Virus genome (UHGV): UHGV-0195539
Strand: one strand, 5' to 3'
Source: a virus
Length of the DNA stretch: 37,850 bases
Positions 4,187-36,791 of the stretch are shown here, in pieces. Position numbers and translations under genes: made by a program. Position 1 is the stretch's first letter. The number at the start of each line of letters is the position of its first letter. The notes beneath the pieces are model-generated. The model had not been told where the DNA came from. It saw only the letters and a list, made by a program, of their open reading frames with translations, and ran no database searches.

Positions 4187-6968
4187 TCTGCATATCAGGG
4201 TTGCTCTGGCGGCGGCAGACACCCTGACACAACCTCTCAGGCGCGCCCGCGAAACCGTGGGCGCGCTTTCTGATTCCCTCCGTGAAACTCAGGACTCCAT
4301 CCGCTCGCTTGAACGGCAGAGTGAAGCCTTTGCTGCGGCACAGACTAAATTTGACGAAGCCACCCGGAAAATTGCCGCTGTTCAGCAGCAACTGAACCGT
4401 CTGCAGCAGGCGGAGCGTGAGGGTACCGTGCTCAGTGAACGGCAGCGTGAAATGATGGCTTCGCTGACCACCCGGCTTGAACGTCTGAACCGGGTGAGGG
4501 ATGTACATCAGCGACGCCTGGAGGATTCACGCCGGGAGCTGGAGAGACACGGTATTGCCGCAGAGGGCAGCAGTCAGACCATACAGGCAGCCATTCGCCG
4601 GACGGCAGAGTATAACGAAGAGCTGGCGCGACAGCGGCAGGCGCTCGCACAGGTGACCCGTGCACAGCAACGCTATGAACAGGCGCAGGAGCGACTCGGG
4701 CGGATACGTAATGCCGGTGCGGCGGCACTGGCTGCCGGTGCAGCAGGACTTTACGCTGGCGGGCGTGCTGTTGCGCCGGTGATGGATCTCCAGCGTCATG
4801 GTGCCGTCATTGCGGCTCAGGCAGGAGAGGGCGCGTCAGATGCCGTGGGGTATACCGGGGTTATAAACCACATGGTTCATACCGGTATCACACCGGATGC
4901 ACAACTGGCGGCTGAAGCTGTGGGTGCTGTCCGCTCCACTCTGGGTGGGCTGGGGGCGGTTAGTGAGAATGAACTGACCCGAATCACCCGAAAAATGCTG
5001 GATATGCAGGCCGTGATGGGGGGCGATATCCCGCAGCACATTCAGGCGGCTGCCATCATGATCAAAAACGGTCTTGCACGCAGCAGTGACGAGGCGGTTG
5101 ATCTGATGGTGGCGGGCATGCAGCGCATGGGGCCGGTTATGCGCGATGAGCTGCCTGAGATCCTTCACGAGTATTCGACCCATTTTCGTAACATGGGGCT
5201 GACAGGGTCGGAAACCATGACGCTCCTTGCGGATATGGCGCAGCAGGGGAAGTTTGCGCTGGATAAAACCGGCGATGCCATCAAGGAGTTCAGTATTCGC
5301 GGCTCCGATATGTCAAAGGCGAGTGCTGAAGCGTATGCGCTTATCGGGCTGGATGCAGCCAGGATGTCATCGGCTGTAGCCAGTGGTGGAACGGCTGCAC
5401 GGGCTGCGCTGCAGAAAACAGCCTCGGGTCTGTTGCAGATCGTCGATCCGGCTGAGCGGGCCAATGCGGCCATCGCACTTTTTGGTACACCGGTTGAAGA
5501 TCTGTCTGTCGATCAAATCCCTGCCTTTCTTGGCGCGCTGGCGCGGGTGTCTGACCGTATGGCTGACGTGTCTGGTGTGGCGGACCGGATGGGGCAAACC
5601 CTGCGTGACAATCTGAGTGGTGATGTGGCGCGGCTTACCGGGACGTTCAGCGCGCTGAGAAGTGGGATTATCGGGGAGATTACGGACGATCTGCGTGGGC
5701 TTGTCCGGATGGCCACAGCGTGGGGTGAGCGTCTGCAGGCGTGGGTGAATGCGCATCCGGAACTGGTGCGAATGATTGCGCTGACGACGGGAGCGGTGCT
5801 GGCGTTAACCACAGCGATGGGGGCGTTGTCCGTTGCGGCCTGGATGGTTGTCGCACCGTTACTGAAACTGCGTCTGGGGCTTGCCCTGCTTCGCGCGATC
5901 CCGGCCGGACTCTCTGTTGCCGGTACGCTGTTTGGCGGACTGACGGGTGTGATTTCAGCCGTGGGGGCTGCGCTGGGGGCGCTGACCTGGCCGGTTGTGG
6001 TGGCGGTGGGAGCCCTGGTCGGTGGTGCTCTGCTGATCTGGCGCTACTGGGATCGGGTCAGGGCGTTTGTGAGCGGATTTATTGAAGGGGTACAGTCAGC
6101 ACTGGCGCCCTTCATGGCGACAGCCTCCCGTTTTGCGCCGCTGCTGGATCTGGTTTCAGGGGCACTGTCCCGTATTCTGGGATGGTTTAAATCCCTGTTA
6201 ACGCCAGTCTCCTCCACGCGTGATTTGCTTGAGCAGTGCACCTCTGCCGGGCAGACGTTCGGGAGCTCTCTGGCCGGTGCGTTAGCCACGGTTTTTTCGC
6301 CCCTGAAAGCTCTGATTGACGGTCTGGCGTGGGTGCTGGAAAAACTCGGTGTTCTGCCCGGTGAAGCTGAGCGGGTTAAGCGAAAACTGGATGAGGCCCG
6401 TAAAACGCCGGTGGCATGGGAGTGGGATCCGGAACAGAAAAAAATGGTTCAGAAGGCGTGGCACTGGTCGCCTCCTGGTGGGGCCAGTGTGCCTTCCGGC
6501 GCCTCCGGTACACAGCCTCCGCCGGTGGCGCTCCCTGCGGGGATAGCGCCGGACGGTAACCGTAACGTTCTCCGTCACCTGAAAGGCATTGAGGGGAATA
6601 CCGGTGGTCTGCTGGCTGAAAACCGTAAACGTATCGGACCCGGAGATATTGTGTTTAAACATCTTCCACGGGCGCTGGCGGTCCGGGGGCAGTGGCATGA
6701 ACCTGTCGTTGCGCCGTCTTCCGGCGGAATGCGCGCGCTGCCACAGGAGGAGATTCAGGTGCAGCAATGGCCGACGGCACGCCCGGCGCCACGAATGCAC
6801 CAGCAGGAAACCTTCGCCAGCGCCTTTCAGGGGGAGATACATGTGCATCTTCACGGGGTGAGTTCGCATAATCCCCGGGAACTGGCGCGCATGGTTGGTG
6901 ACGCTGTCAGGGCGGAAATGAACAGAATGGCACGTGCCGGAACCGGCAGCTTCCGCGATCGCGACTGA
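4140..6968 (+). CDS. T: tail tape measure protein T
   Basis: 942-aa ORF with coiled-coil N-terminal region, central Ala/Gly-rich hydrophobic segments and P2 tail gene position. GTG start with GAGGTG SD; ATG at 4176 is an alternative. Confidence 0.85.
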   Translation: MSGRLPEAEVTIMMNNLHIRVALAAADTLTQPLRRARETVGALSDSLRETQDSIRSLERQSEAFAAAQTKFDEATRKIAAVQQQLNRLQQAEREGTVLSERQREMMASLTTRLERLNRVRDVHQRRLEDSRRELERHGIAAEGSSQTIQAAIRRTAEYNEELARQRQALAQVTRAQQRYEQAQERLGRIRNAGAAALAAGAAGLYAGGRAVAPVMDLQRHGAVIAAQAGEGASDAVGYTGVINHMVHTGITPDAQLAAEAVGAVRSTLGGLGAVSENELTRITRKMLDMQAVMGGDIPQHIQAAAIMIKNGLARSSDEAVDLMVAGMQRMGPVMRDELPEILHEYSTHFRNMGLTGSETMTLLADMAQQGKFALDKTGDAIKEFSIRGSDMSKASAEAYALIGLDAARMSSAVASGGTAARAALQKTASGLLQIVDPAERANAAIALFGTPVEDLSVDQIPAFLGALARVSDRMADVSGVADRMGQTLRDNLSGDVARLTGTFSALRSGIIGEITDDLRGLVRMATAWGERLQAWVNAHPELVRMIALTTGAVLALTTAMGALSVAAWMVVAPLLKLRLGLALLRAIPAGLSVAGTLFGGLTGVISAVGAALGALTWPVVVAVGALVGGALLIWRYWDRVRAFVSGFIEGVQSALAPFMATASRFAPLLDLVSGALSRILGWFKSLLTPVSSTRDLLEQCTSAGQTFGSSLAGALATVFSPLKALIDGLAWVLEKLGVLPGEAERVKRKLDEARKTPVAWEWDPEQKKMVQKAWHWSPPGGASVPSGASGTQPPPVALPAGIAPDGNRNVLRHLKGIEGNTGGLLAENRKRIGPGDIVFKHLPRALAVRGQWHEPVVAPSSGGMRALPQEEIQVQQWPTARPAPRMHQQETFASAFQGEIHVHLHGVSSHNPRELARMVGDAVRAEMNRMARAGTGSFRDRD

Positions 6969-7480: not shown

Positions 7481-8068
7481 TCAGGCTTCGGCTTCTTTTC
7501 CCCAGCCAACCTTATAGTCCAGAATCGCCGCCGTATCGTTCAGGGCGGCGATCTCTTTTTTCATGTTACGCTGGCGAATGTGAATTTCCATCCCTTTGGC
7601 AAACAGGGCTTTTGCGGCTGCATCGCTGAGGGCAATCAGCTCATCAGCAGAAACAGGAACATCGTTGTTCTGTGCATCAGTCCAGAAAAAATCCAGCGGC
7701 AGGATCCCCGCTTTTGCGGCAGCAACGGAAGGCTCAAGGCGGGCCTGCGTTGACTTCCCGTAGTCCCATTTCCTGCCGTTATGTTCAAAGGTGTAACTCG
7801 CCGCTTCCATCGCATTACGCCAGGCGTTGATTTCGTCGTTTTTCAGGCGTCTGGCGTTTTCCCTGTCAGTGTCGTTTTCCTGGTATTCAGATACAGGGCC
7901 GTGATTTCCTGCTTTCAGTTCGCCCCAGAGTTTTTTGCCGTGTGGCGAGTTGTCATATTCGGTTGCCGTATAGGGCAGCCAGCTCTCCTCCCCTTCAAAC
8001 TGGATCTCACAGTCGATAGTGCCGTCACGGTTATAAGCGGCATTTCTTGCTGATTTGATTGTGTGCAT
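7481..8068 (-). CDS. G: tail fiber assembly protein G
   Basis: 195-aa ORF immediately downstream of the tail fiber gene on the same strand; Tfa/gpG-like. Confidence 0.75.
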   Translation of the reverse strand: MHTIKSARNAAYNRDGTIDCEIQFEGEESWLPYTATEYDNSPHGKKLWGELKAGNHGPVSEYQENDTDRENARRLKNDEINAWRNAMEAASYTFEHNGRKWDYGKSTQARLEPSVAAAKAGILPLDFFWTDAQNNDVPVSADELIALSDAAAKALFAKGMEIHIRQRNMKKEIAALNDTAAILDYKVGWGKEAEA

Positions 8069-8079
8069 GAGTCTCTCCG

Positions 8080-9417
8080 TCAGGCAATGCGCTCAAATAT
8101 TCCGATTCCTGCGCCTGCATAAATGTCAGCGCAGGCCCGCCACGTGCCCGGTGGCCTGCGGTTTGTGTTCCAGTTTTGCATGGATTCACGGGGGCCGAAG
8201 TTGCCTTCGGAATGAGTCAGGCTTATCAGTCTGAGTTTACTGCCCGGGCGGGTGTTTCCGGCCGTTATATCAATTTTGGCTGGCCACTCCCCTTCGGCAT
8301 CCGTTGCCGCCAGAATAAAGCTGCCCACATCCCAGAGTGTCCGCTGTGTTTTTGCCTGTGCAGCCTCCAGTGCTTGCCGTGCTTTCTGCCCGGCGTTTTC
8401 TGCTGCCGTCATGGCCGTCTTCACAGCTTTTGGTGTGGCAGCCAGCACTTCACTGTCACTGTCCGTTGCGCTGCTTAGCTGAACAATACCTCGCTCTGTC
8501 AGGGAGGCATCGCCGGTCTGCGTGAGGGGGAGTATGGCAACCTCCTTCCATTCAGACCATGGCCCGTTGCCGGTGAAGTTACCTGTCACTGTCCGGATAA
8601 ATTTTCGTGGTGGATTCCAGGCGGTGTATTCCTGCTGGCAGAATCCCCATGCGCCCATCCTGATGGATAATGATCCGGCTGATGTTACCGGGTAGTGATG
8701 TGCTGTAGTGGCGCCGTTGTTGTTGGGCTGATAGTAGTCACCATGATGTTCAGGTCTCCCCAGTGTATTCAGATCCACGGCGAGGGGGGCTGTTGGTCTT
8801 GTTACTGTCAGCGCCTTAAGTGCTTTTATTGCTTTGGGTGTGGCTGCCCGGGTTTCATCATCACTGTCGGTTTCACTACTGAGCTGAGTAAATCCTTTAC
8901 TGGTGGTTGTGGCATCCGGGTGTTTACCGTTTTGTTCATGCTGCTTTATCATTTCTGCCACGCCAGCCTGTGTTGCCATGGTGGTTGATGAGTCGGCTGT
9001 CAGATTTACAGAGGCTTCGTTGCTCAGCAGAATCACCATGCGGAATACCTGTTCTCTGCCTGAGCCCTCATCAAGCTGCGGTTTGTAACCTTCCGCAACA
9101 TTACCTACGGCGATGAGTGTGCCTTTGCTGTCAAACAGACCGATTTCGCGGATCCAGAATCCTCCTTCATTCGCAGGAATGATCACTTCGGCGGTTAAAA
9201 AACTGGTGTTTTCCGCGTCACGGCTGACCCTGCTGACCTCGCCCCGCCAGACCTCTTTAACGAGAGCGGTTTGCGTGGCCAGTGGTTCTGTGGGTTTACC
9301 GTTACCGTCTCCGACGGCGATATGTGTCAGCGTGATCTTTTCTCCATCCGGTAACACCGCAGCTGCGAGGGCTGCTGTGCCGGCATTTGTGATAATGGTT
9401 TTGTATTTTGCGGCCAT
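8080..9417 (-). CDS. H: tail fiber protein H
   Basis: N-terminus MAAKYKTIITNAGTAALAAA, LIAVGNVAEGYKPQ, GFTQLSS and the repeated LAATPKAVK motif match the P2 gpH N-terminal region; C-terminal half differs. Second Met chosen for SD spacing. Confidence 0.85.
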   Translation of the reverse strand: MAAKYKTIITNAGTAALAAAVLPDGEKITLTHIAVGDGNGKPTEPLATQTALVKEVWRGEVSRVSRDAENTSFLTAEVIIPANEGGFWIREIGLFDSKGTLIAVGNVAEGYKPQLDEGSGREQVFRMVILLSNEASVNLTADSSTTMATQAGVAEMIKQHEQNGKHPDATTTSKGFTQLSSETDSDDETRAATPKAIKALKALTVTRPTAPLAVDLNTLGRPEHHGDYYQPNNNGATTAHHYPVTSAGSLSIRMGAWGFCQQEYTAWNPPRKFIRTVTGNFTGNGPWSEWKEVAILPLTQTGDASLTERGIVQLSSATDSDSEVLAATPKAVKTAMTAAENAGQKARQALEAAQAKTQRTLWDVGSFILAATDAEGEWPAKIDITAGNTRPGSKLRLISLTHSEGNFGPRESMQNWNTNRRPPGTWRACADIYAGAGIGIFERIA

Positions 9418-25835: not shown

Positions 25836-26240
25836 TTACCTGCGTGATTGCCTGCTGGCGGCCGAATGCACATAGCGGACAATTGCCGCTTTTCGGTTAA
25901 CGACGGCCAGCGTTCTTGCCAGTTCTTCGTTGAGTTTTCTGGTCTGTTTTTCGTGGTATGCCTGCATGATTTTTCCTACGGGAGTCAGTGGTTCAGGCTC
26001 TGATATGGCGCGACGAGGGCGCACGGCAACGATGAATGCGCTTCTGTCGGTGTTGATTCTTGCAGTCAGGATGTCGGTCATAACGGTGTCTGTGCTGCGA
26101 TCGGGACTGGCGATCGTGATTTCCAGTTCGTCGCCTGGCTGCGGTCGAACACTGACGCCGCTCAGTGTCAGTGCCGGAATGCGTGCGTTCATGATGGTGC
26201 TGAAATCATGGCGCTGGAGTACGCAATGGAATCGTGTCAT
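25836..26240 (-). CDS. hypothetical protein (134 aa)
   Basis: ATGA overlap with the replication gene stop; GGAGG SD. Confidence 0.55.
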   Translation of the reverse strand: MTRFHCVLQRHDFSTIMNARIPALTLSGVSVRPQPGDELEITIASPDRSTDTVMTDILTARINTDRSAFIVAVRPRRAISEPEPLTPVGKIMQAYHEKQTRKLNEELARTLAVVNRKAAIVRYVHSAASRQSRR

Positions 26241-28750
26241 GGGTTAACCTCCGGTTGATCTGCTGCCACCAGGCTTCGTGATTTTTCATCCCAGTGCACA
26301 ATCCGCCCGTCAGGCAGGCGAACGCGTGCACCTCTGTGTACGGAAAGTGCTGCGCCACTGTGTAGCTCCTCGCCCGTCGTGCTCAGTGCCGACTTGATCA
26401 CGGTGGTGGTGACGTCAGTCAGTGGCAATGCTGTACGTACATGTATGACGTCATCGGGCGTGGTGGAGCCGCCGGTTTTCACGGTTTTTGTGTCAGATGG
26501 CGCATCTTTCAGCTGCCTGGTGAGTTGTTTTCTCTCTGTGGGGGTCAGTGACCTTAACCATTCGCTCAAATCACCTTCCGGGATGGTCAGTTTTTGTTCT
26601 TTCCTGGTTTCCGGTGGTGGGGTTTTCCCCTCTCCGGTGTCTGTTTTTTCATCATGGGGACAGTTATTGCCACGAGTCCAAGGTGCGGCAAAGCCGCACT
26701 CAACGTCAAAACCCTCGTCCGTGCTGTTGTCGGCTTTCGCTTCTTTTCTGACCAGTTTCCACTCGTCCGGATGGGTACAGATGGTGTAGCGCTCGCCGAG
26801 CGACGGGGCGCAAATTCCGTAGATGCGCTGCGGGAATTCGCCGTAGTCGTTGGCCTCATCTGCGGTTTCGTATGCGGTGCGGACCAGGTACGCGTTGCGG
26901 GGAATGAGCACGCCACCCTGGCGGGTGATGTAGGTGGCAAAACACCCCACGTCAGCAGCGGCCAGAATGGCGTCAATGTCGTCATGATCCAGGCGCTTCG
27001 GTGATGCCGGGTTGCGCTCCATCTGTCCGGCAAGGCGGCGTAGTTCACGCCACACCTGGCGGGGCGGGATGCCGAAGAACTGGAACTGACGGATGCGATG
27101 GAGACTCGCCCAGGCAATGGCGTTTTCCACGGTTTCGGCCATGGTTTTCCCTGATTCCTCATCGGCGTAAGGTTTGCCGGTTTTCGGGTCATTGTCGTGA
27201 AAGGCGCTGGCGTCCAGGTTCTTGCCGATATAGGTTGCGATGTAACTTGCCGGTGTGCCTTTTGCCGGGTCGATTTTTTCGCACTTGAAGCGCGGCGAAA
27301 TATCATCCCCCAGTTCTGCGCGATCTGATTTGACTGCCGCGTCACGCATGATTGCAATGATGCGTTCTTCATTGTCCGGGGAGGTGAATACCAGCATGTG
27401 CCAGTGCGGTGTGCCGTCATGGTGTGGCTCAACGGTGCGCACCCCGTACCAGCTCAGGCCTTCTTTGTTGAGTTTTTTTCTTACAGCTGCAAAGACGTCG
27501 TACACCAGATAATCGCTGGCATCGCGCACGGTGGCACCGTTGTATTTCGGGTTCAGGCTGCCGTCCTCGTTTACGCTGTGAAAGCGGGAAGGGCAGGTCA
27601 CTGTCACGAAGAACGCGGAGTCACCACGCGATTCGGCGACCTGTTCCATCCCTCTGACGCAGGCCATCATCTCGTTGCGGCGGTTGCGCGGATTCCCCAG
27701 CCCTGACCAGTACACGTCCTCCAGGCTCAGGCGTTCACCGTCTTCGTTTTCAATGTCCCAGCTTTTGAGAAAATCACGGGTGCGCTGGCGTTTCTCCCGG
27801 AATTCCTGGAGTGACTCATGGCTGATGTAGGGGGATGCCTTGCGCGATACTCTTCCGGCGGCACGCAGTAATTCCTCCCGCCAGAGATCGGCGAGGTGGC
27901 GCAGCTGGTTGTTCCACCAGGTGGCGCAGGTGATGCGCATTACTGCACCCGGTACCCGTTCAGGGTCTGGTGCCGTGCGGCGGTCACGTCTGAGCTCGAG
28001 TGACGGCCAGCATGGTGGGGTCACGCCCAGTTTTAACGCCATGCGCGCCAGCTGCTGGTAAGTCAGCAACCAGGTAAACAGGTTATCGTCGCCTTTTCCT
28101 GTCCGCTCAGTAACTTCATCACATATGCGTTCCAGTTCGGTGGAAAATGCCGCCGCTGTTAGTGTGGCAAGGCGCTGAATTTGATCACGGTTGAGTTGTG
28201 GCAGCATGAGTAATTCATCAAGGCGATGGCGTGCTGCGGTGGCTTTGAATGCCGTCGTGGCGAAGCATTCATTCACCTGTTCGATGCGTTTCAGGCGTGT
28301 GCGCAGTCCACGGCGAACAAAGTTATCAGCCACGTGTGTATTGTTGTTTTTCACGCCTTCATGGCGGGCGCTTTGCTGTTTGCGGTTTAAACGCGCCAGA
28401 TCACGAATGAGCGCGTTGCCAAGAAACGAGGGCAGGGCGCGAAGTTCTGCCATGGCTTCCGATACCACTGTGGGCGGATTTTCGCGTTTGTGTCTCGCCA
28501 GTTTTTCCAGTCTGATCCGGCGCTCTTCGTCGTGGTGAAGATGCGAATTAATTCGCTTGCCTTCGTCTGTGTTTGTCAGGAAGTCGACGGTCTCTTCATC
28601 CAGTCTTGCATCAATGCGAATGTCTTCGTTGATGTAGCTCTGAATGGCCTGGCGTAATGCGGTTGGTTGCGCTCTGCCGAACGTTTCAGGATCGATAACC
28701 GGTAGCGGGGCGTTCCACGGGTACGCCAGTTGTGCGTTATGGTCGCTCAT
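26237..28750 (-). CDS. A: replication initiation endonuclease A (rolling-circle, HUH type)
   Basis: HWHMLVF HUH-type motif and large size match P2 gpA; ATG with GGGGAG SD, ATGA overlap with upstream gene. Confidence 0.9.
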   Translation of the reverse strand: MSDHNAQLAYPWNAPLPVIDPETFGRAQPTALRQAIQSYINEDIRIDARLDEETVDFLTNTDEGKRINSHLHHDEERRIRLEKLARHKRENPPTVVSEAMAELRALPSFLGNALIRDLARLNRKQQSARHEGVKNNNTHVADNFVRRGLRTRLKRIEQVNECFATTAFKATAARHRLDELLMLPQLNRDQIQRLATLTAAAFSTELERICDEVTERTGKGDDNLFTWLLTYQQLARMALKLGVTPPCWPSLELRRDRRTAPDPERVPGAVMRITCATWWNNQLRHLADLWREELLRAAGRVSRKASPYISHESLQEFREKRQRTRDFLKSWDIENEDGERLSLEDVYWSGLGNPRNRRNEMMACVRGMEQVAESRGDSAFFVTVTCPSRFHSVNEDGSLNPKYNGATVRDASDYLVYDVFAAVRKKLNKEGLSWYGVRTVEPHHDGTPHWHMLVFTSPDNEERIIAIMRDAAVKSDRAELGDDISPRFKCEKIDPAKGTPASYIATYIGKNLDASAFHDNDPKTGKPYADEESGKTMAETVENAIAWASLHRIRQFQFFGIPPRQVWRELRRLAGQMERNPASPKRLDHDDIDAILAAADVGCFATYITRQGGVLIPRNAYLVRTAYETADEANDYGEFPQRIYGICAPSLGERYTICTHPDEWKLVRKEAKADNSTDEGFDVECGFAAPWTRGNNCPHDEKTDTGEGKTPPPETRKEQKLTIPEGDLSEWLRSLTPTERKQLTRQLKDAPSDTKTVKTGGSTTPDDVIHVRTALPLTDVTTTVIKSALSTTGEELHSGAALSVHRGARVRLPDGRIVHWDEKSRSLVAADQPEVNP

Positions 28751-29163
28751 GCGTCGCACTCCCCGGCAGTCGCCGCCTGAAACGCCGCGCGGTACAGCAT
28801 GAGAAGGCGCTGGTATTCGCCGATAAAACCTTCTGCGGTGTATATACCTTTCACGGCCACGCTGTGGTTTGTCATTTCCAGAACCAGCGCCATCTCTGAT
28901 GACGACCAGCTGATGGTGGTGCTGTCGGTGCCGTTGATGTGAAATAAACCCAGTCCATCACCATCACCTTTCACGTCCACGCGGTAACGACCGTCAACGG
29001 TGAAGGAGAAATCCCCGGATGTGGTGATGCTGCGGGCAGCCTGTTTACAGGCGCGGCGGTAATAGTCGTGCCAGTCGTTCAGGCGGGAAGCCAGCCGGGG
29101 ATCCACTGCCCACATCCAGTTAAAAAAATCCTGAATATCTGAAAGTCCCTTAACGCTCTTCAT
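28747..29163 (-). CDS. hypothetical early protein (138 aa)
   Basis: GGAGG SD; ATGA overlap with A start. Confidence 0.55.
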   Translation of the reverse strand: MKSVKGLSDIQDFFNWMWAVDPRLASRLNDWHDYYRRACKQAARSITTSGDFSFTVDGRYRVDVKGDGDGLGLFHINGTDSTTISWSSSEMALVLEMTNHSVAVKGIYTAEGFIGEYQRLLMLYRAAFQAATAGECDA

Positions 29164-29231
29164 GAGAACCTCCGGTAACAGATGTGCGGAAGCCTCCCGC
29201 GTACGGGTGCGGGATGGCTTCAGGATGTTGT

Positions 29232-29459
29232 TTAGTGGTGGTGTTGCTGGTTGATAAGGTCCTGCAGCTCCGCGAGATCATCCGCCAGGTAGCTGAAAAC
29301 AGCGGCACAGTAACGGTTTGACAGAGCGTGAGTGCGCTCATGCAGCATGTTGATATGCATGATTTGCGCGACGCGTGTTGCGCGGAAAAGTCTGCGGTTG
29401 ATTTCAGTCTGGATGTGACGACGCTCAGCGCGGGCGCGCTGTTGCTTGCGGTTTGCCAT
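29232..29459 (-). CDS. hypothetical small basic protein (75 aa)
   Basis: GAAGAGG SD; Arg-rich N-terminus. Confidence 0.45.
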   Translation of the reverse strand: MANRKQQRARAERRHIQTEINRRLFRATRVAQIMHINMLHERTHALSNRYCAAVFSYLADDLAELQDLINQQHHH

Positions 29460-29842
29460 GGTGTGGCCTCTTCGTTTGTGAATTTTGAAAACTCACCAAC
29501 CAGAGGTGGAAAACTCAGGGTGGCGAGACGTACAGGGTTTCCACAACCGGCAAACGAAGAAACCGGCCCGACCGAAGTCGGCCCTGTACGCCCCGCCATA
29601 ATTCTGACGCGAAAAAGACGTGGCGATACAGTACGCACAAAAAAACCGCTGGCGCGGCTGTGCGCTTCGTTTGTCAGCGGGGTGGAAATCCCGGCACCCG
29701 TTTTATGAGGTGCAGCGGAAATGTAACCCGACACGACGAGCGCTGGCAAGCGGTTTTTGTGTTGCGTGCTGATGTGGTTAGAATGTGGCGAATTAATATC
29801 ACCTGGCAACTGGTGATTGTCTGCATACGCGGGGTGTTTCTG

Positions 29843-30307
29843 ATGAGTGATAAGCTCCCTTCTGATTACGACATTCTTTTTGACCTGTGGTACAGCTACT
29901 GGCTTGAACGTATTACATGTGTGTTTCACCGACGCGTTTCTGCTGCTCTGCGAATCAGCGCCTTTCTGGTTGGTGTTGCGGCGTTTGTCCTGTGTGATTT
30001 TGTTGTGTTGGTACTCTTCAGTGTGGTTCTGTTTCTGCTCTGGCAGTGCATGGCTGCCAGTTTTGAACGCAGGGCTGAAAAGGCTGAATGGCAGACAGTC
30101 AGTTACCAGCGCCTTATCAGTCAGCGCCATGTGATTAGTAAGGAATGCATGATTGCGCGCCTCTCCTTTGTTGAGGAAAGTGACAGTCCCATCATGGAGT
30201 GCATGATTAATCTTGCCTGGAATAAAGCCTGTGAGGCGGTTGGCAGCTCTTCGCGCAATCATGTTTCGTTCTCCGGTCGGTTACTCAGTCGCCTGTGCGG
30301 CTTCTGA
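29843..30307 (+). CDS. hypothetical membrane protein encoded antisense to the early operon
   Basis: Hydrophobic core ISAFLVGVAAFVLCDFVVLVLFSVVLFLLW; upstream TTGTGT-16 nt-TAGAAT sigma70-like promoter. Start chosen at MSDKLP; 3' end overlaps the convergent next gene. Confidence 0.4.
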   Translation: MSDKLPSDYDILFDLWYSYWLERITCVFHRRVSAALRISAFLVGVAAFVLCDFVVLVLFSVVLFLLWQCMAASFERRAEKAEWQTVSYQRLISQRHVISKECMIARLSFVEESDSPIMECMINLAWNKACEAVGSSSRNHVSFSGRLLSRLCGF

Positions 30308-30631
30308 CTGGCGAAGCAGCTGGGTGATGCTTTCACCGGCTGCCCTGTTTTCCGGGAATGACACCGGCATGTTCAGCTTGCGTGCCATTGCGTACTCTGC
30401 CCGTGCGCCAGCTGACTCCGTCCAGCCTTCCAGTAAGTAAATGGCATCGGCACACATGAGCATCGAAATACAAATGCTCATGTACTGCTGCTGGCTTAGT
30501 CCGTCCGGCAGTATGGCAGGGTTGAGTGCGGTGTATCCGGCTGACTTAAGCTTCATCGCCGCCATGGAAAACGCCGTTCTGTTGTGGTCTTTGTATCCGG
30601 TCATGGGACCGGCGATATAAATCACTGCCAT
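30281..30631 (-). CDS. DUF4406-like protein (nucleoside 2-deoxyribosyltransferase-like fold)
   Basis: N-terminal VIYIAGPMTG motif; GGGAGG SD. Confidence 0.55.
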   Translation of the reverse strand: MAVIYIAGPMTGYKDHNRTAFSMAAMKLKSAGYTALNPAILPDGLSQQQYMSICISMLMCADAIYLLEGWTESAGARAEYAMARKLNMPVSFPENRAAGESITQLLRQSEAAQATE

Positions 30632-31117: not shown

Positions 31118-32092
31118 TCACGGGTGAGCAGAGGTAAACATCGCGCTGTACGTTGCATCTCCCGTCGCCGGGCCGCAGTCCGGGCACCAGCCACCGCCAT
31201 GGCGACCGCAGGTGTCGCACTGCTTCAGGGTGGCGATAACTTCCATTGCGGGTTCACTGGTTCTTGCGCCAACGCTTCGTGGTGCCTGTATGCAGTTCAT
31301 CCGGTAACCCTGATAAATGCGTCTGGTTTCCGGTGTGTCGGAATTGGAGATGGTGATGCTGGTCATGCCGCCCGTTTCCTGTGAAAGGCGGTCAAGCGCT
31401 GCTCTCAGGCGAATGTGGTCGTCCTTCGTGAAGGGTTTTCCATAGGCGGTGAAATTGTCCCGGCCACTGAATGGCAGGTAAGGGGGATCGCAGTACACGC
31501 AAAGCGTGTTACCCATGCTGAACAGGTGGCTGGCACAGCTCAGCGTTTTTCGAAAATCGCCATGAACAAGCAGTGTTCGGGTGCTGTTTGCCTTGTCTGC
31601 AAATGCGCGGATCTCCCGCTCAGGAAAATAAGGTTTGCTGTAGCTGCCGAAAGGCACGTTAAAATCGCCTTTTCCATTCACGCGGAACAGGCCGTTAAAA
31701 CAGTGTCGGTTGAGGTACAAAAACATGGCGGCCAGTCGCAGTTTCCGACGGTCGCTTATTCCCGTGCTCAGGAATGCATGATTCTCTGCATTAAAGGTGT
31801 TGCGGATGGCGAGATAGTCAGCCCTGTTGTTATGTTCCAGGAACAGGTCTTTTGCCTCATCGATCAGGCTGTCGGTGTTGTCCCGTGCTGCCCGCCAGAA
31901 ATTAATCAGCGCACCGTTGGAATCTCCAAGGATGCAGCGGCTGTAACGGGTGTTCATGAATACCGATGCGCCACCCACGAACGGCTCAACCAGGCAGTCA
32001 GCTTCTGGCAGGTGCGCCTTCAGTGTGTCCATGATGCGGTTTTTTCCGCCCACCCATTTCAGCGGTGTGCCGGATAACAGTTTTTCGCTCAT
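31118..32092 (-). CDS. dam: DNA adenine methyltransferase (Dam-like) with C-terminal Cys-rich zinc-ribbon-like tail
   Basis: DPPY catalytic motif (VYCDPPY) and GG...VFMN SAM-binding region; C-terminal CDTCGRHGGGWCPDCG. Confidence 0.85.
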   Translation of the reverse strand: MSEKLLSGTPLKWVGGKNRIMDTLKAHLPEADCLVEPFVGGASVFMNTRYSRCILGDSNGALINFWRAARDNTDSLIDEAKDLFLEHNNRADYLAIRNTFNAENHAFLSTGISDRRKLRLAAMFLYLNRHCFNGLFRVNGKGDFNVPFGSYSKPYFPEREIRAFADKANSTRTLLVHGDFRKTLSCASHLFSMGNTLCVYCDPPYLPFSGRDNFTAYGKPFTKDDHIRLRAALDRLSQETGGMTSITISNSDTPETRRIYQGYRMNCIQAPRSVGARTSEPAMEVIATLKQCDTCGRHGGGWCPDCGPATGDATYSAMFTSAHP

Positions 32093-32316
32093 AACGCGGC
32101 CTCTCTGTTATAGGTTTCGTGCGTTAATAAATCCCATGACTTCCCGTTGTTTTTGCTCAGTAATCGCCAGCGAAAACCGATTCTTATGACCAGGTAGTCG
32201 TGGGGCTTTATGCGTGAAAAATTCCGCGCTCCGTTGCGAAATAAGCGCAGAGACGTGCGGGCTTTTGTTTCCACGTTCAGGGGGGGGCGGCAACGCATAT
32301 TCAGGATGGCGACCAT
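32089..32316 (-). CDS. hypothetical small basic protein (75 aa), stop overlaps dam start
   Basis: GAGGTG SD; stop overlaps the dam ATG (ATGA). Confidence 0.4.
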   Translation of the reverse strand: MVAILNMRCRPPLNVETKARTSLRLFRNGARNFSRIKPHDYLVIRIGFRWRLLSKNNGKSWDLLTHETYNREAAL

Positions 32317-36492: not shown

Positions 36493-36607
36493 TTGTAATT
36501 TGCGTTAATTTGCTCCCCTTGTTTTGATTTAGTCATTGAAAAATAAGTAAATCATCAAGGGGAGTAAGGTGTGTTAAATCTCCTGCGGGCGCTTTTTTTG
36601 TCTCCCT

Positions 36608-36621
36608 TTGATACCGAACAA
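36608..36621. promoter_or_regulatory. FNR-like half-site pair (TTGATaccgAACAA) in the host dmsA promoter region
   Basis: Resembles FNR consensus TTGAT-N4-ATCAA; dmsA is a known FNR-activated gene. Confidence 0.3.
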
Positions 36622-36791
36622 TAATTACTCCTCACTTACACGTAATACTACTTTCGAGTGAAAATCTACCTATCTCTTTGATTTTCAAATTATTCGATGT
36701 ATACAAGCCTATATAGCGAACTGCTATAGAAATAATTACACAATACGGTTTGTTACTGGAATCAATCGTGAGCAAGCTTGAGTGAGCCATT

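Follow-up and report, generated by a model that had tools for sequence, protein, structure and literature searches.

This study concerns positions 29460 to 30307 of the virus genome UHGV-0195539, which was analysed as one stretch of 37,850 nucleotides, hereafter the window, and which contains a P2-like prophage with its early region on the minus strand. The combined evidence makes it probable that this segment accommodates two independent modules placed back to back, an RNA switch of the IsrK/C4 type on the minus strand and, on the plus strand, an accessory prophage gene, or moron, for a small membrane protein with a likely role in defence. A preliminary description of the same DNA had drawn attention to a membrane protein gene that is transcribed against the early operon and preceded by about 380 bp of non-coding sequence. 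The latter is borne out by our analysis, as the 383 bp between 29460 and 29842 do not code for protein and instead harbour two RNA families of the Rfam database, both located on the minus strand. The coordinates of all features are compiled in Table 1.

The reality of the plus-strand gene is illustrated by the comparison of its alleles. A second allele from E. coli aligns without gaps at 80% DNA identity and, when read in the plus frame, differs from the window at 27, 16 and 48 sites in codon positions 1, 2 and 3, respectively. The ratio of nonsynonymous to synonymous substitutions (dN/dS, by NG86) is 0.21 in this frame compared to 1.1 in the frame of the long open reading frame (ORF) of 370 residues on the opposite strand. 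Similarly, with a homologue from the Yersinia phage vB_YenM_42.18 that shares 33% of its residues, the alignment of the plus frames scores 79 bits and that of the minus frames 35 bits. These two results rule out the minus-strand ORF as a real gene and identify it as a spurious shadow of the plus-strand gene, in line with the non-protein-like appearance that the preliminary description had ascribed to it. Together with the existence of homologues and a match to the protein family PHROG 6315, the low dN/dS provides strong support for the previous claim that a genuine gene is located between the minus-strand early genes. An opposite interpretation would regard the plus-strand ORF as an artefact of annotation and assign function exclusively to the minus strand, either as protein or as untranslated RNA of the early operon. 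It could appeal to the sheer length of the open minus frame, to the record of vB_YenM_42.18, in which the minus strand is annotated, and to disagreements between genomes concerning the start of the plus ORF in the NCBI Prokaryotic Genome Annotation Pipeline (PGAP). However, besides its unfavourable dN/dS and alignment score, the minus frame passes out of frame through two RNA genes and another gene, whereas the plus-strand protein belongs to a well-defined family with a confidently predicted fold, and we thus consider this interpretation very improbable. In the deposited genome of vB_YenM_42.18 (NC_070913, locus L005), the protein gp08 of 221 residues (4809-5474, minus strand) lies opposite to a conserved ORF with two transmembrane helices (4995-5465, plus strand), and it is probably a mis-annotation on the wrong strand.

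The plus-strand frame is open from a GTG at 29660 up to 30307, and the RefSeq/PGAP annotations of three genomes have placed its start at three different positions. We have chosen the ATG at 29843 as the true start because in an allele with 39% identity, found in another P2-like prophage (locus L013, protein P0010), the aligned ATG is preceded at a distance of 6 nucleotides by the sequence GGAGG, which in the window corresponds to GGGG. The strand and the ORF of the preliminary description are thus retained, whereas its start was off by one base.

The second module is contained in the 383 bp preceding this start. A structure search of this region, as it had been proposed earlier, has identified an IsrK-like RNA and a C4 antisense RNA, both with scores exceeding the gathering scores of the respective families, and for C4 no non-canonical pairs were flagged. 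The sigma-70-like promoter of their transcript ends 7 nucleotides upstream of the 5' end of isrK and is invariant in six loci. Within C4, the sequence CUUCGUUUG occupies the 12-nucleotide loop of the second hairpin and is directly followed by GUGGAAA, and this bipartite segment is complementary to two target sites, one inside the IsrK-like RNA and the other upstream of a gene for a protein of 75 residues, where the target runs into the Shine-Dalgarno sequence. The bipartite pattern TTTCCAC-N-CAAACGAAG is found three times in the 37.8 kb of the window, twice as target and once as antisense copy, with 0.00 occurrences expected, and the 9-mer alone is also found three times compared to an expected 0.26. 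The predicted fold of the read-through RNA has a free energy of -107.8 kcal/mol (z = -3.7), and in its minimum free energy structure the a1/b1 target is paired with the antisense segment of C4. The 75-residue protein matches the Pfam family PF25738 (Derepression) with 30.8 bits at a gathering score of 27 and PHROG 3688 with E=2.9e-42. On the same Pfam family, the epsilon protein of phage P4 scores 170 bits, and the two proteins share 30% identity over 50 residues (E=5e-8). Its ORF is annotated as 'derepression protein' in phage P88 and in RefSeq. The block consisting of the derepression gene, C4 and isrK is found at a coverage of at least 80% in 1144 of 5426 complete E. coli genomes (about 21%). 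Such modules are known from P4 and P1 (PMC3632133, PMC4825925) and have been named 'IsrK-C4 immunity system', where the two RNAs go by the names seqA and CI RNA in case of P4 (Barquist et al., PMC3632133). The module is thus not novel, and it resides on the minus strand, where it would serve the genes to its left and not the membrane gene.

These results also define what became of the earlier proposals for the upstream stretch. The small RNAs that it was thought to hold are present, but they are located on the minus strand, belong to known families and do not constitute a leader of the membrane gene, and the suggested replication element finds no support. The view that the 383 bp would act as replication element or as regulatory leader of the membrane gene with a novel small RNA could draw on the structured nature of the region, with its hairpins and the low z-score of its minus-strand fold. 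Yet all of this structure is accounted for by the two curated RNA families, the predicted start of plus-strand transcription at about 29781 is located downstream of both RNAs, and neither iterons nor an AT-rich block were found in the stretch, which has a GC content of 0.55. We would hence assign next to no probability to this view.

Several annotated proteins overlap with these RNA genes. A 'hypothetical protein' of 62 residues in PGAP/RefSeq (WP_024192890, window positions 29520-29708, plus strand) covers C4 and isrK, and an 'ash family protein' pseudogene is annotated over the same RNA genes in another locus (L029, 3258-3530). Both look like spurious proteins over RNA genes. In the reference record of P4, a coding sequence for a 137-residue 'cI gene product' (8168-8584, minus strand) extends over the C4/CI RNA (8420-8507), as legacy annotation of an RNA gene.

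The relationship to the immunity region of P4 is close. In P4 (locus L025), where both Rfam families are detected, isrK (8692..8615, at the P_LE leader), C4 (8507..8420) and epsilon (8175..7888) succeed one another as they do in the window and are separated by similar distances, and in both cases a small ORF and a replication gene are found further downstream. The layout of the window corresponds to the arrangement seqA - CI(seqB) - seqC, and in the P4 region, which comprises P_LE, seqA, CI RNA, seqC, epsilon, orf151 and alpha, the loop is likewise complementary to one upstream and one downstream site. The P4 8-mer TTCACAGG is found at the same three places, with three copies compared to 0.39 expected. 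P4 and the window share a layout with different sequences, and loop and targets therefore co-vary, which we regard as good comparative evidence that their pairing matters. Due to the different sequences of loop and targets, a distinct immunity specificity would be expected. Unlike P4, which is a satellite that carries the module ahead of its primase, the window contains a full helper-type P2-like prophage (Xuanwuvirus/P88-like) with the module placed ahead of gpA, and the ORF following the derepression gene is unrelated to orf151, as a comparison of the latter to the 138-residue ORF of the window has revealed no similarity. In phage P1, the immI locus is reportedly laid out (Citron and Schuster 1990) as a1b1 - c4(b'a') - a2b2, and the same order of elements is found when comparing the window with immI of P1 and P7 (a1b1, c4, a2b2, icd/ant). 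A third related system is the isrK-orf45-anrP region of Gifsy-1. There, too, an IsrK RNA that has a promoter of its own and ends at a leaky terminator precedes an antirepressor-type gene, and the central part of IsrK forms base pairs with sequence located downstream in the read-through transcript (PMC4825925), similar to the fold predicted for the window. The short IsrK of Gifsy-1 acts in trans as an activator of translation, with the antiterminator AntQ as output (Hershko-Shalev et al. 2016, PMC4825925), whereas the downstream genes in the window encode the derepression protein and replication functions.

The membrane gene and the RNA module meet at their promoters, which are arranged back to back with overlapping -35 boxes. 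The promoter scan did not reveal a strong consensus promoter for the membrane gene, and the candidate for a sigma-70 promoter matches 8 of 12 consensus positions and has a conserved -10 box. The latter is TAGAAT in the window and TATAAT in the 39%-identical allele, and it is missing in four related prophages that lack the gene. In contrast, the -35 box TTGTGT is part of the sequence shared with prophages without the gene. The GGAGG/GGGG Shine-Dalgarno sequence again travels with the gene and is absent in prophages that do not contain it. The preliminary claim of a separate sigma-70-like promoter is thus upheld insofar as a candidate with a gene-linked -10 box is present, although this candidate is weaker than implied. 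We also noted an inverted repeat (TCACC-N8-GGTGA, 29799-29816, plus strand) within the sequence that may form the 5' leader of this gene. The repeat is not retained in the 39%-identical allele and might function as operator or fold into a hairpin of the leader.

The way in which the gene is distributed strongly supports its behaviour as an independently mobile cassette. The 39%-identical allele occupies the same slot, in the same orientation, with the IsrK promoter on one side and a MarR-like early gene on the other. When its prophage is compared to one of O157:H7, the flanks are 93-95% identical and a segment of 599 bp with the plus-strand gene (L013, 3918-4516) replaces a segment of 298 bp with a minus-strand gene for 99 residues (L027, 3489-3786), directly upstream of the IsrK promoter. 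In P88 and in a prophage of enterotoxigenic E. coli (ETEC4077), the slot is occupied by a protein of the SPFH family. It may constitute a cargo hotspot of P2-like prophages that has escaped recognition and that is distinct from the one between gpA and gpQ. That defence hotspot (Rousset et al. 2022, PMC9122126) was considered as context for the gene and dismissed, as it is a different site. The family of the membrane protein was examined in five prophage architectures, in each of which the gene is oriented opposite to the flanking lytic genes. These include the early operon of P2-like phages (the window, L013 and, in Yersinia, L005, where the gene is placed upstream of gpB), a position beside a lambdoid S24-type repressor in Citrobacter (L023/24), one in Serratia (L021/22) that separates a Q-type antiterminator and the accompanying tRNAs from the lysis genes, an immunity region in Vibrio (L020) and, in a metagenomic phage (L018), a series of small genes of early type. 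Shiga toxin phages carry their toxin genes between the Q antiterminator and the lysis genes. No isrK or C4 RNA was found at the loci of Yersinia, Citrobacter, Serratia, Vibrio and the metagenomic phage that contain the membrane gene, and the prophages of P88, O157:H7 and ST131 conversely contain the RNAs without the gene. An obligate link between both modules can thus be dismissed. An isolated isrK is found next to a remnant of the two-helix gene between fragments of insertion sequences adjoining the type I restriction gene hsdR (L016, 3794-4468), at a site without C4 or derepression gene.

A promoter of its own combined with an orientation antisense to lytic genes is typical for an accessory, or moron, locus (Owen et al., PMC7067206). 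The membrane gene displays a gene-linked -10 box, an orientation that is independent of the flanking operon and presence or absence among otherwise collinear prophages, and judged by these sequence features it is an accessory prophage gene of this kind. The earlier description of an independent unit directed against the early operon thus corresponds to a classic moron layout. The gene resembles rexAB of lambda, sieA and sieB of P22, old, tin and fun of P2 and gp15 of HK97 in that it is small and accessory, has a promoter of its own, is placed in or next to an immunity or early region and varies among otherwise similar prophages, and, as in many of these cases, the product is a membrane protein. 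In contrast to these general similarities, no sequence relationship of any of them to the protein of the window was detected with Pfam, PHROG and PADLOC.

The match of the protein to PHROG 6315, a family of unknown function, covers residues 6-154 and positions 2-149 of the 152 positions of the profile (E=3.8e-54). When 1.8 billion representatives of clusters at 50% identity were searched exhaustively, 20 relatives were recovered at E<=0.001, and a profile search recovered 37 proteins. Nearly all of them contain between 150 and 176 residues and all are unnamed, originating from E. coli, Yersinia, Citrobacter, Serratia, Vibrio and metagenomes. Searches of the literature with the protein accession and the PHROG number did not retrieve any report on the membrane protein. 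The family alignment features an N-terminal helix with the pattern F.L.YSYWLE...RR, two hydrophobic helices, the motif Q..RY..L, a DS motif and a conserved alanine-rich helix. In the hydropathy profile of the window protein, hydrophobicity extends from residue 33 to 73 and is only interrupted by Asp 52, with the sequence HRR preceding and RRAEK following this region and with a loop of about 1-3 residues connecting both helices. The positive-inside rule predicts a membrane hairpin with both termini in the cytoplasm and with almost no periplasmic loop. A corresponding architecture was obtained with AlphaFold from an alignment of 18 sequences (predicted local distance difference test, pLDDT, of 90.6 and predicted template modelling score, pTM, of 0.82), with helices encompassing residues 8-50 and 54-93 and three short helices at the C-terminus. 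The predicted protein is thus a membrane hairpin with a helical tail of about 80 residues that would reside in the cytoplasm. With hydropathy and model in agreement, the predicted topology is strongly supported, and so are the two transmembrane helices of the preliminary description. Between the two E. coli alleles, differences cluster in the membrane hairpin (window 29910-30140), whereas the first approximately 70 nucleotides (29843-29910) and the last approximately 170 are nearly identical, which might be explained by mosaic recombination or by a diversifying pressure that acts on the hairpin.

Indications for a function come from remote similarities of the family. When 41 of its members were scanned individually against the PADLOC models, 11 matched PDLC00712, a two-transmembrane (2TM) effector of the kind found in the cyclic-oligonucleotide-based anti-phage signalling system (CBASS). 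The best of these matches, obtained for the relative P0038, covers residues 10-99 and positions 23-117 of the 171 positions of the profile (E=2.9e-6). Five members matched PDLC00690, two PDLC00710 and two RTasSLATT, a model for defence-associated reverse transcriptase (DRT) systems (E=2.7e-4), with all alignments being co-linear and at the same offset. In Pfam, the family shows sub-threshold similarity to SLATT_fungal (E=0.0062), DUF4231 (E=0.061), SLATT_4 (E=0.11) and SLATT_3 (E=0.64), with DUF4231 presumably also being part of the SLATT group, and in NCBIfam to SLATT_4 (0.054, below cut-off). Among the 27 top matches of a Foldseek search of the predicted viral structures in BFVD, seven are named SLATT, which stands for 'SMODS and SLOG-associating 2TM effector' (E 0.06-2.2), and the four best probabilities are in the range of 0.98-0.99. 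The features shared with SLATT/2TM effectors of CBASS, Pycsar and DRT/retron systems would include an N-terminal helix, a tight membrane hairpin, cytoplasmic ends and further helices, all of which are predicted in case of the window protein, and weak but co-linear matches of its relatives to 2TM effector, RTasSLATT and SLATT models. In contrast to these effectors, it stands alone, with no partner encoded nearby and with a conserved C-terminal domain of about 80 residues of its own. We thus regard kinship to SLATT/2TM proteins as a consistent lead that is plausible but unproven, and while we do not file the 154-residue protein as a member of the group, it probably works like one.

With respect to its role, for which exclusion or conversion had been suggested in the preliminary description, the most likely function of the protein would be the protection of the lysogen from other phages via the inner membrane. 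Here we would favour a SLATT-like mechanism of abortive infection, where the membrane is permeabilised, because of the topology of the protein and its resemblance to 2TM effectors, with a block of DNA entry as alternative. The weak matches of relatives to 2TM models of CBASS and DRT systems and the location of the gene, in unrelated prophages, at slots expressed during lysogeny tilt the earlier suggestion towards an effector of this type. A more specific and still tentative idea, which is possible although we would not count on it, is that these proteins form a new stand-alone SLATT-like family of antisense morons in temperate phages of P2-like, lambdoid and Vibrio architecture, whose C-terminal domain of about 80 residues would sense a superinfecting phage and trigger the collapse of the membrane, and which would be silenced at induction by early transcription.

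In a different scenario, the protein would serve the physiology of phage or host, either as factor of lysogenic conversion that acts on envelope or transport or as membrane-anchored modulator of the decision between lysis and lysogeny that adjoins the derepression switch. Such a role would be compatible with the finding that two alleles of only 39% identity are located at exactly one place, promoter to promoter with that of isrK, that other cargo of the slot includes an SPFH membrane protein and that the window protein does not match any validated defence protein. We nevertheless consider it unlikely, since the occurrence of the family in Yersinia, Citrobacter, Serratia and Vibrio is independent of the switch, a loop of 1-3 residues leaves almost no exposure to the periplasm and the relatives resemble 2TM effectors of CBASS and DRT systems. 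An even less probable scenario describes the gene as a toxin-like element of addiction or interference, whose membrane-damaging product would be curbed by antisense transcription or by a partner that has escaped recognition, thereby stabilising the prophage instead of excluding other phages. The small hydrophobic hairpin, the convergent and overlapping transcription with the DUF4406 gene and the presence of a ParE-like toxin fragment in the same operon, which shows that such cargo occurs, would all be in line with this proposal. However, a protein of 154 residues with a conserved soluble tail of 80 residues does not resemble type I toxins, there is no conserved neighbour gene, and the early operon as the only obvious source of antisense RNA is repressed in the lysogen, so that the antidote would be gone when needed.

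The preferred reading, that of an RNA switch adjoining a moron with likely defence function, has to be weighed against several observations, most of which concern the membrane gene. The full element (29460-30307) is rare, with at least 80% of it found in only 25 of the 5426 complete E. coli genomes. The plus-strand promoter remains under the threshold of the consensus scan, and the scan did not detect a clear terminator either 3' of the membrane gene or between the convergent genes. Searches with the window protein itself in Pfam, NCBIfam and PADLOC returned nothing useful, with no match at E<=1 in PADLOC-DB v2 and no match to a SLATT profile, and a direct assignment to a family was dismissed since these searches gave noise only, exemplified by Mlo and ECF-S. 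The SLATT signal originates from relatives that are 20-27% identical to it and is in part based on hydrophobic helices, which attract spurious profile matches. On the level of structure, the Foldseek search of BFVD contained no match at E<=0.001, with all E-values exceeding 0.02, and searches of the PDB returned generic helical hairpins, which are uninformative. SLATT effectors are normally paired with a sensor gene, and in the 12 loci inspected no SMODS, SLOG, cyclase or reverse transcriptase gene was found next to the membrane gene, whose neighbours vary. Concerning the RNA module, the sequence is compatible with control by C4 both at the level of translation, as in P1, and by termination of transcription, as in P4.

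By analogy to the characterised systems, we propose the following mechanism for the module on the minus strand. The constitutive-looking promoter of isrK would fire in the lysogen, with most transcripts stopping at the IsrK terminator, and read-through would generate C4 and subsequently the message for the derepression gene, the 138-residue ORF and the replication gene A. As in immI of P1 and the immunity region of P4, C4 would be processed from its precursor by RNase P and the a'/b' segment would pair with a2/b2 on its own transcript and on those originating from the early promoter, thereby hiding the ribosome-binding site of the derepression gene. The resulting block of translation would, via polarity or termination, limit the expression of the 138-residue ORF and of gene A. 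The IsrK-like RNA, which contains the second copy of the target (a1/b1), may pair with C4 in cis and serve either as activator, similar to its counterpart in Gifsy-1, or as decoy. Collectively, the RNA module would act as a second layer of immunity on top of the C repressor. On the opposite strand, the membrane gene would be transcribed divergently from about position 29781, and it should be active in the lysogen as long as repression of the early promoter persists. On induction, transcription of the early operon in antisense direction across the gene would probably dampen it, and its expression should fall because no terminator separates the convergent genes. The antisense orientation that is found in every context examined would fit such dampening.

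Table 1. Features of the analysed segment and of adjacent genes (positions refer to the window).
Feature	Position	Strand	Remarks
Membrane protein gene, 154 residues	29843..30307	+	ATG start; PHROG 6315, no Pfam family
Candidate sigma-70 promoter of membrane gene	29747..29774	+	-35 TTGTGT (29747-52), 16-nt spacer, -10 TAGAAT (29769-74)
Weak Shine-Dalgarno sequence GGGG	29831..29834	+	8 nt ahead of ATG 29843; aligned with GGAGG of allele L013
Promoter of IsrK/C4 transcript	29749..29720	-	TTGCCA, 17/18 nt, TTACAT/TACATT (promoter scan)
IsrK-like RNA (= P4 seqA / c4-a1b1)	29713..29639	-	Rfam RF01394, 64.1 bits, gathering score 50, full length
Target sites a1 (UUUCCAC) and b1 (CAAACGAAG)	29688..29665	-	Inside IsrK-like RNA
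Intrinsic terminator of IsrK-like RNA	29659..29644	-	GC hairpin, then U-run (scan)
C4 / P4-CI-type antisense RNA	29603..29516	-	Rfam RF01695, 82.1 bits, gathering score 45, model positions 1-87 of 87
C4 antisense segment, loop b' (CUUCGUUUG) and a' (GUGGAAA)	29559..29538	-	Complementary to a1/b1 and a2/b2
Target sites a2 (UUUCCAC) and b2 (CAAACGAAG)	29512..29470	-	b2 runs into AAGAGG Shine-Dalgarno sequence of derepression gene
Derepression gene (P4 epsilon-like antirepressor), 75 residues	29459..29232	-	ATG 56 bases past C4; predicted C4 target
138-residue ORF	29163..28747	-	PHROG 3237 (unknown function); between derepression gene and gene A, in a transcription unit common to them
P2 gpA-type replication endonuclease	28759..26237	-
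DUF4406 early gene	30631..30281	-	Pfam PF14359, E=7e-34; convergent with membrane gene
370-residue open frame, not a gene	30262..29150	-	dN/dS 1.1; crosses isrK, C4 and derepression gene out of frame

The segment is embedded in an early operon that is read on the minus strand and that contains, in this order, genes for a 3'-5' exonuclease, a ParE-like fragment, Dam, two small ORFs, one of which encodes 72 residues, and the DUF4406 protein. The studied stretch follows next and leads to the 75-residue ORF, the 138-residue ORF and the gpA-type replication endonuclease. The overlap of the membrane gene with the 3' end of the convergent DUF4406 gene, correctly recognised before, amounts to 27 bp (30281-30307). 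An identical region is found in a prophage of E. coli JNEC-KY208, which contains an integrase, a helix-turn-helix repressor and a long early operon and whose integration site adjoins dmsA. Among named phages, the P88-like Peduoviridae that make up part of the genus Xuanwuvirus come closest. The small ORF related to toxins of the ParE family (approximately 32089-32316, minus strand), located between the genes for Dam and the 3'-5' exonuclease, is annotated with different lengths in different genomes. An element of the Rfam family STnc130 (36567-36701, minus strand, 124.8 bits), situated between the integrase of the prophage and dmsA of the host, is a host-side small RNA or leader at the attachment junction and lies outside the phage.

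In summary, our study has assigned the two strands of a short early-region segment to distinct modules. For its annotation, this implies that current pipelines place spurious proteins over the RNAs and the membrane gene, as illustrated by the 62-residue ORF, the 'ash family' call and the wrong strand in one phage. The RNA switch of the P4/P1 type with its epsilon-like gene is common in P2-like helper-type prophages, being found in about one fifth of the complete E. coli genomes, and its presence in helpers bears on the sharing of, or the conflict over, derepression and immunity with P4-like satellites. This frequency together with an epsilon homologue in helper-type prophages is worth noting, although it does not amount to a new kind of finding. 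The membrane gene adds a new, uncharacterised example to the well-known class of prophage morons for small membrane proteins, and it offers a compact single-gene candidate for a new function in phage defence or exclusion, with a plausible link to SLATT effectors that lack their usual sensor partner. If this link holds true, it would show how pore-type effectors can be triggered alone.

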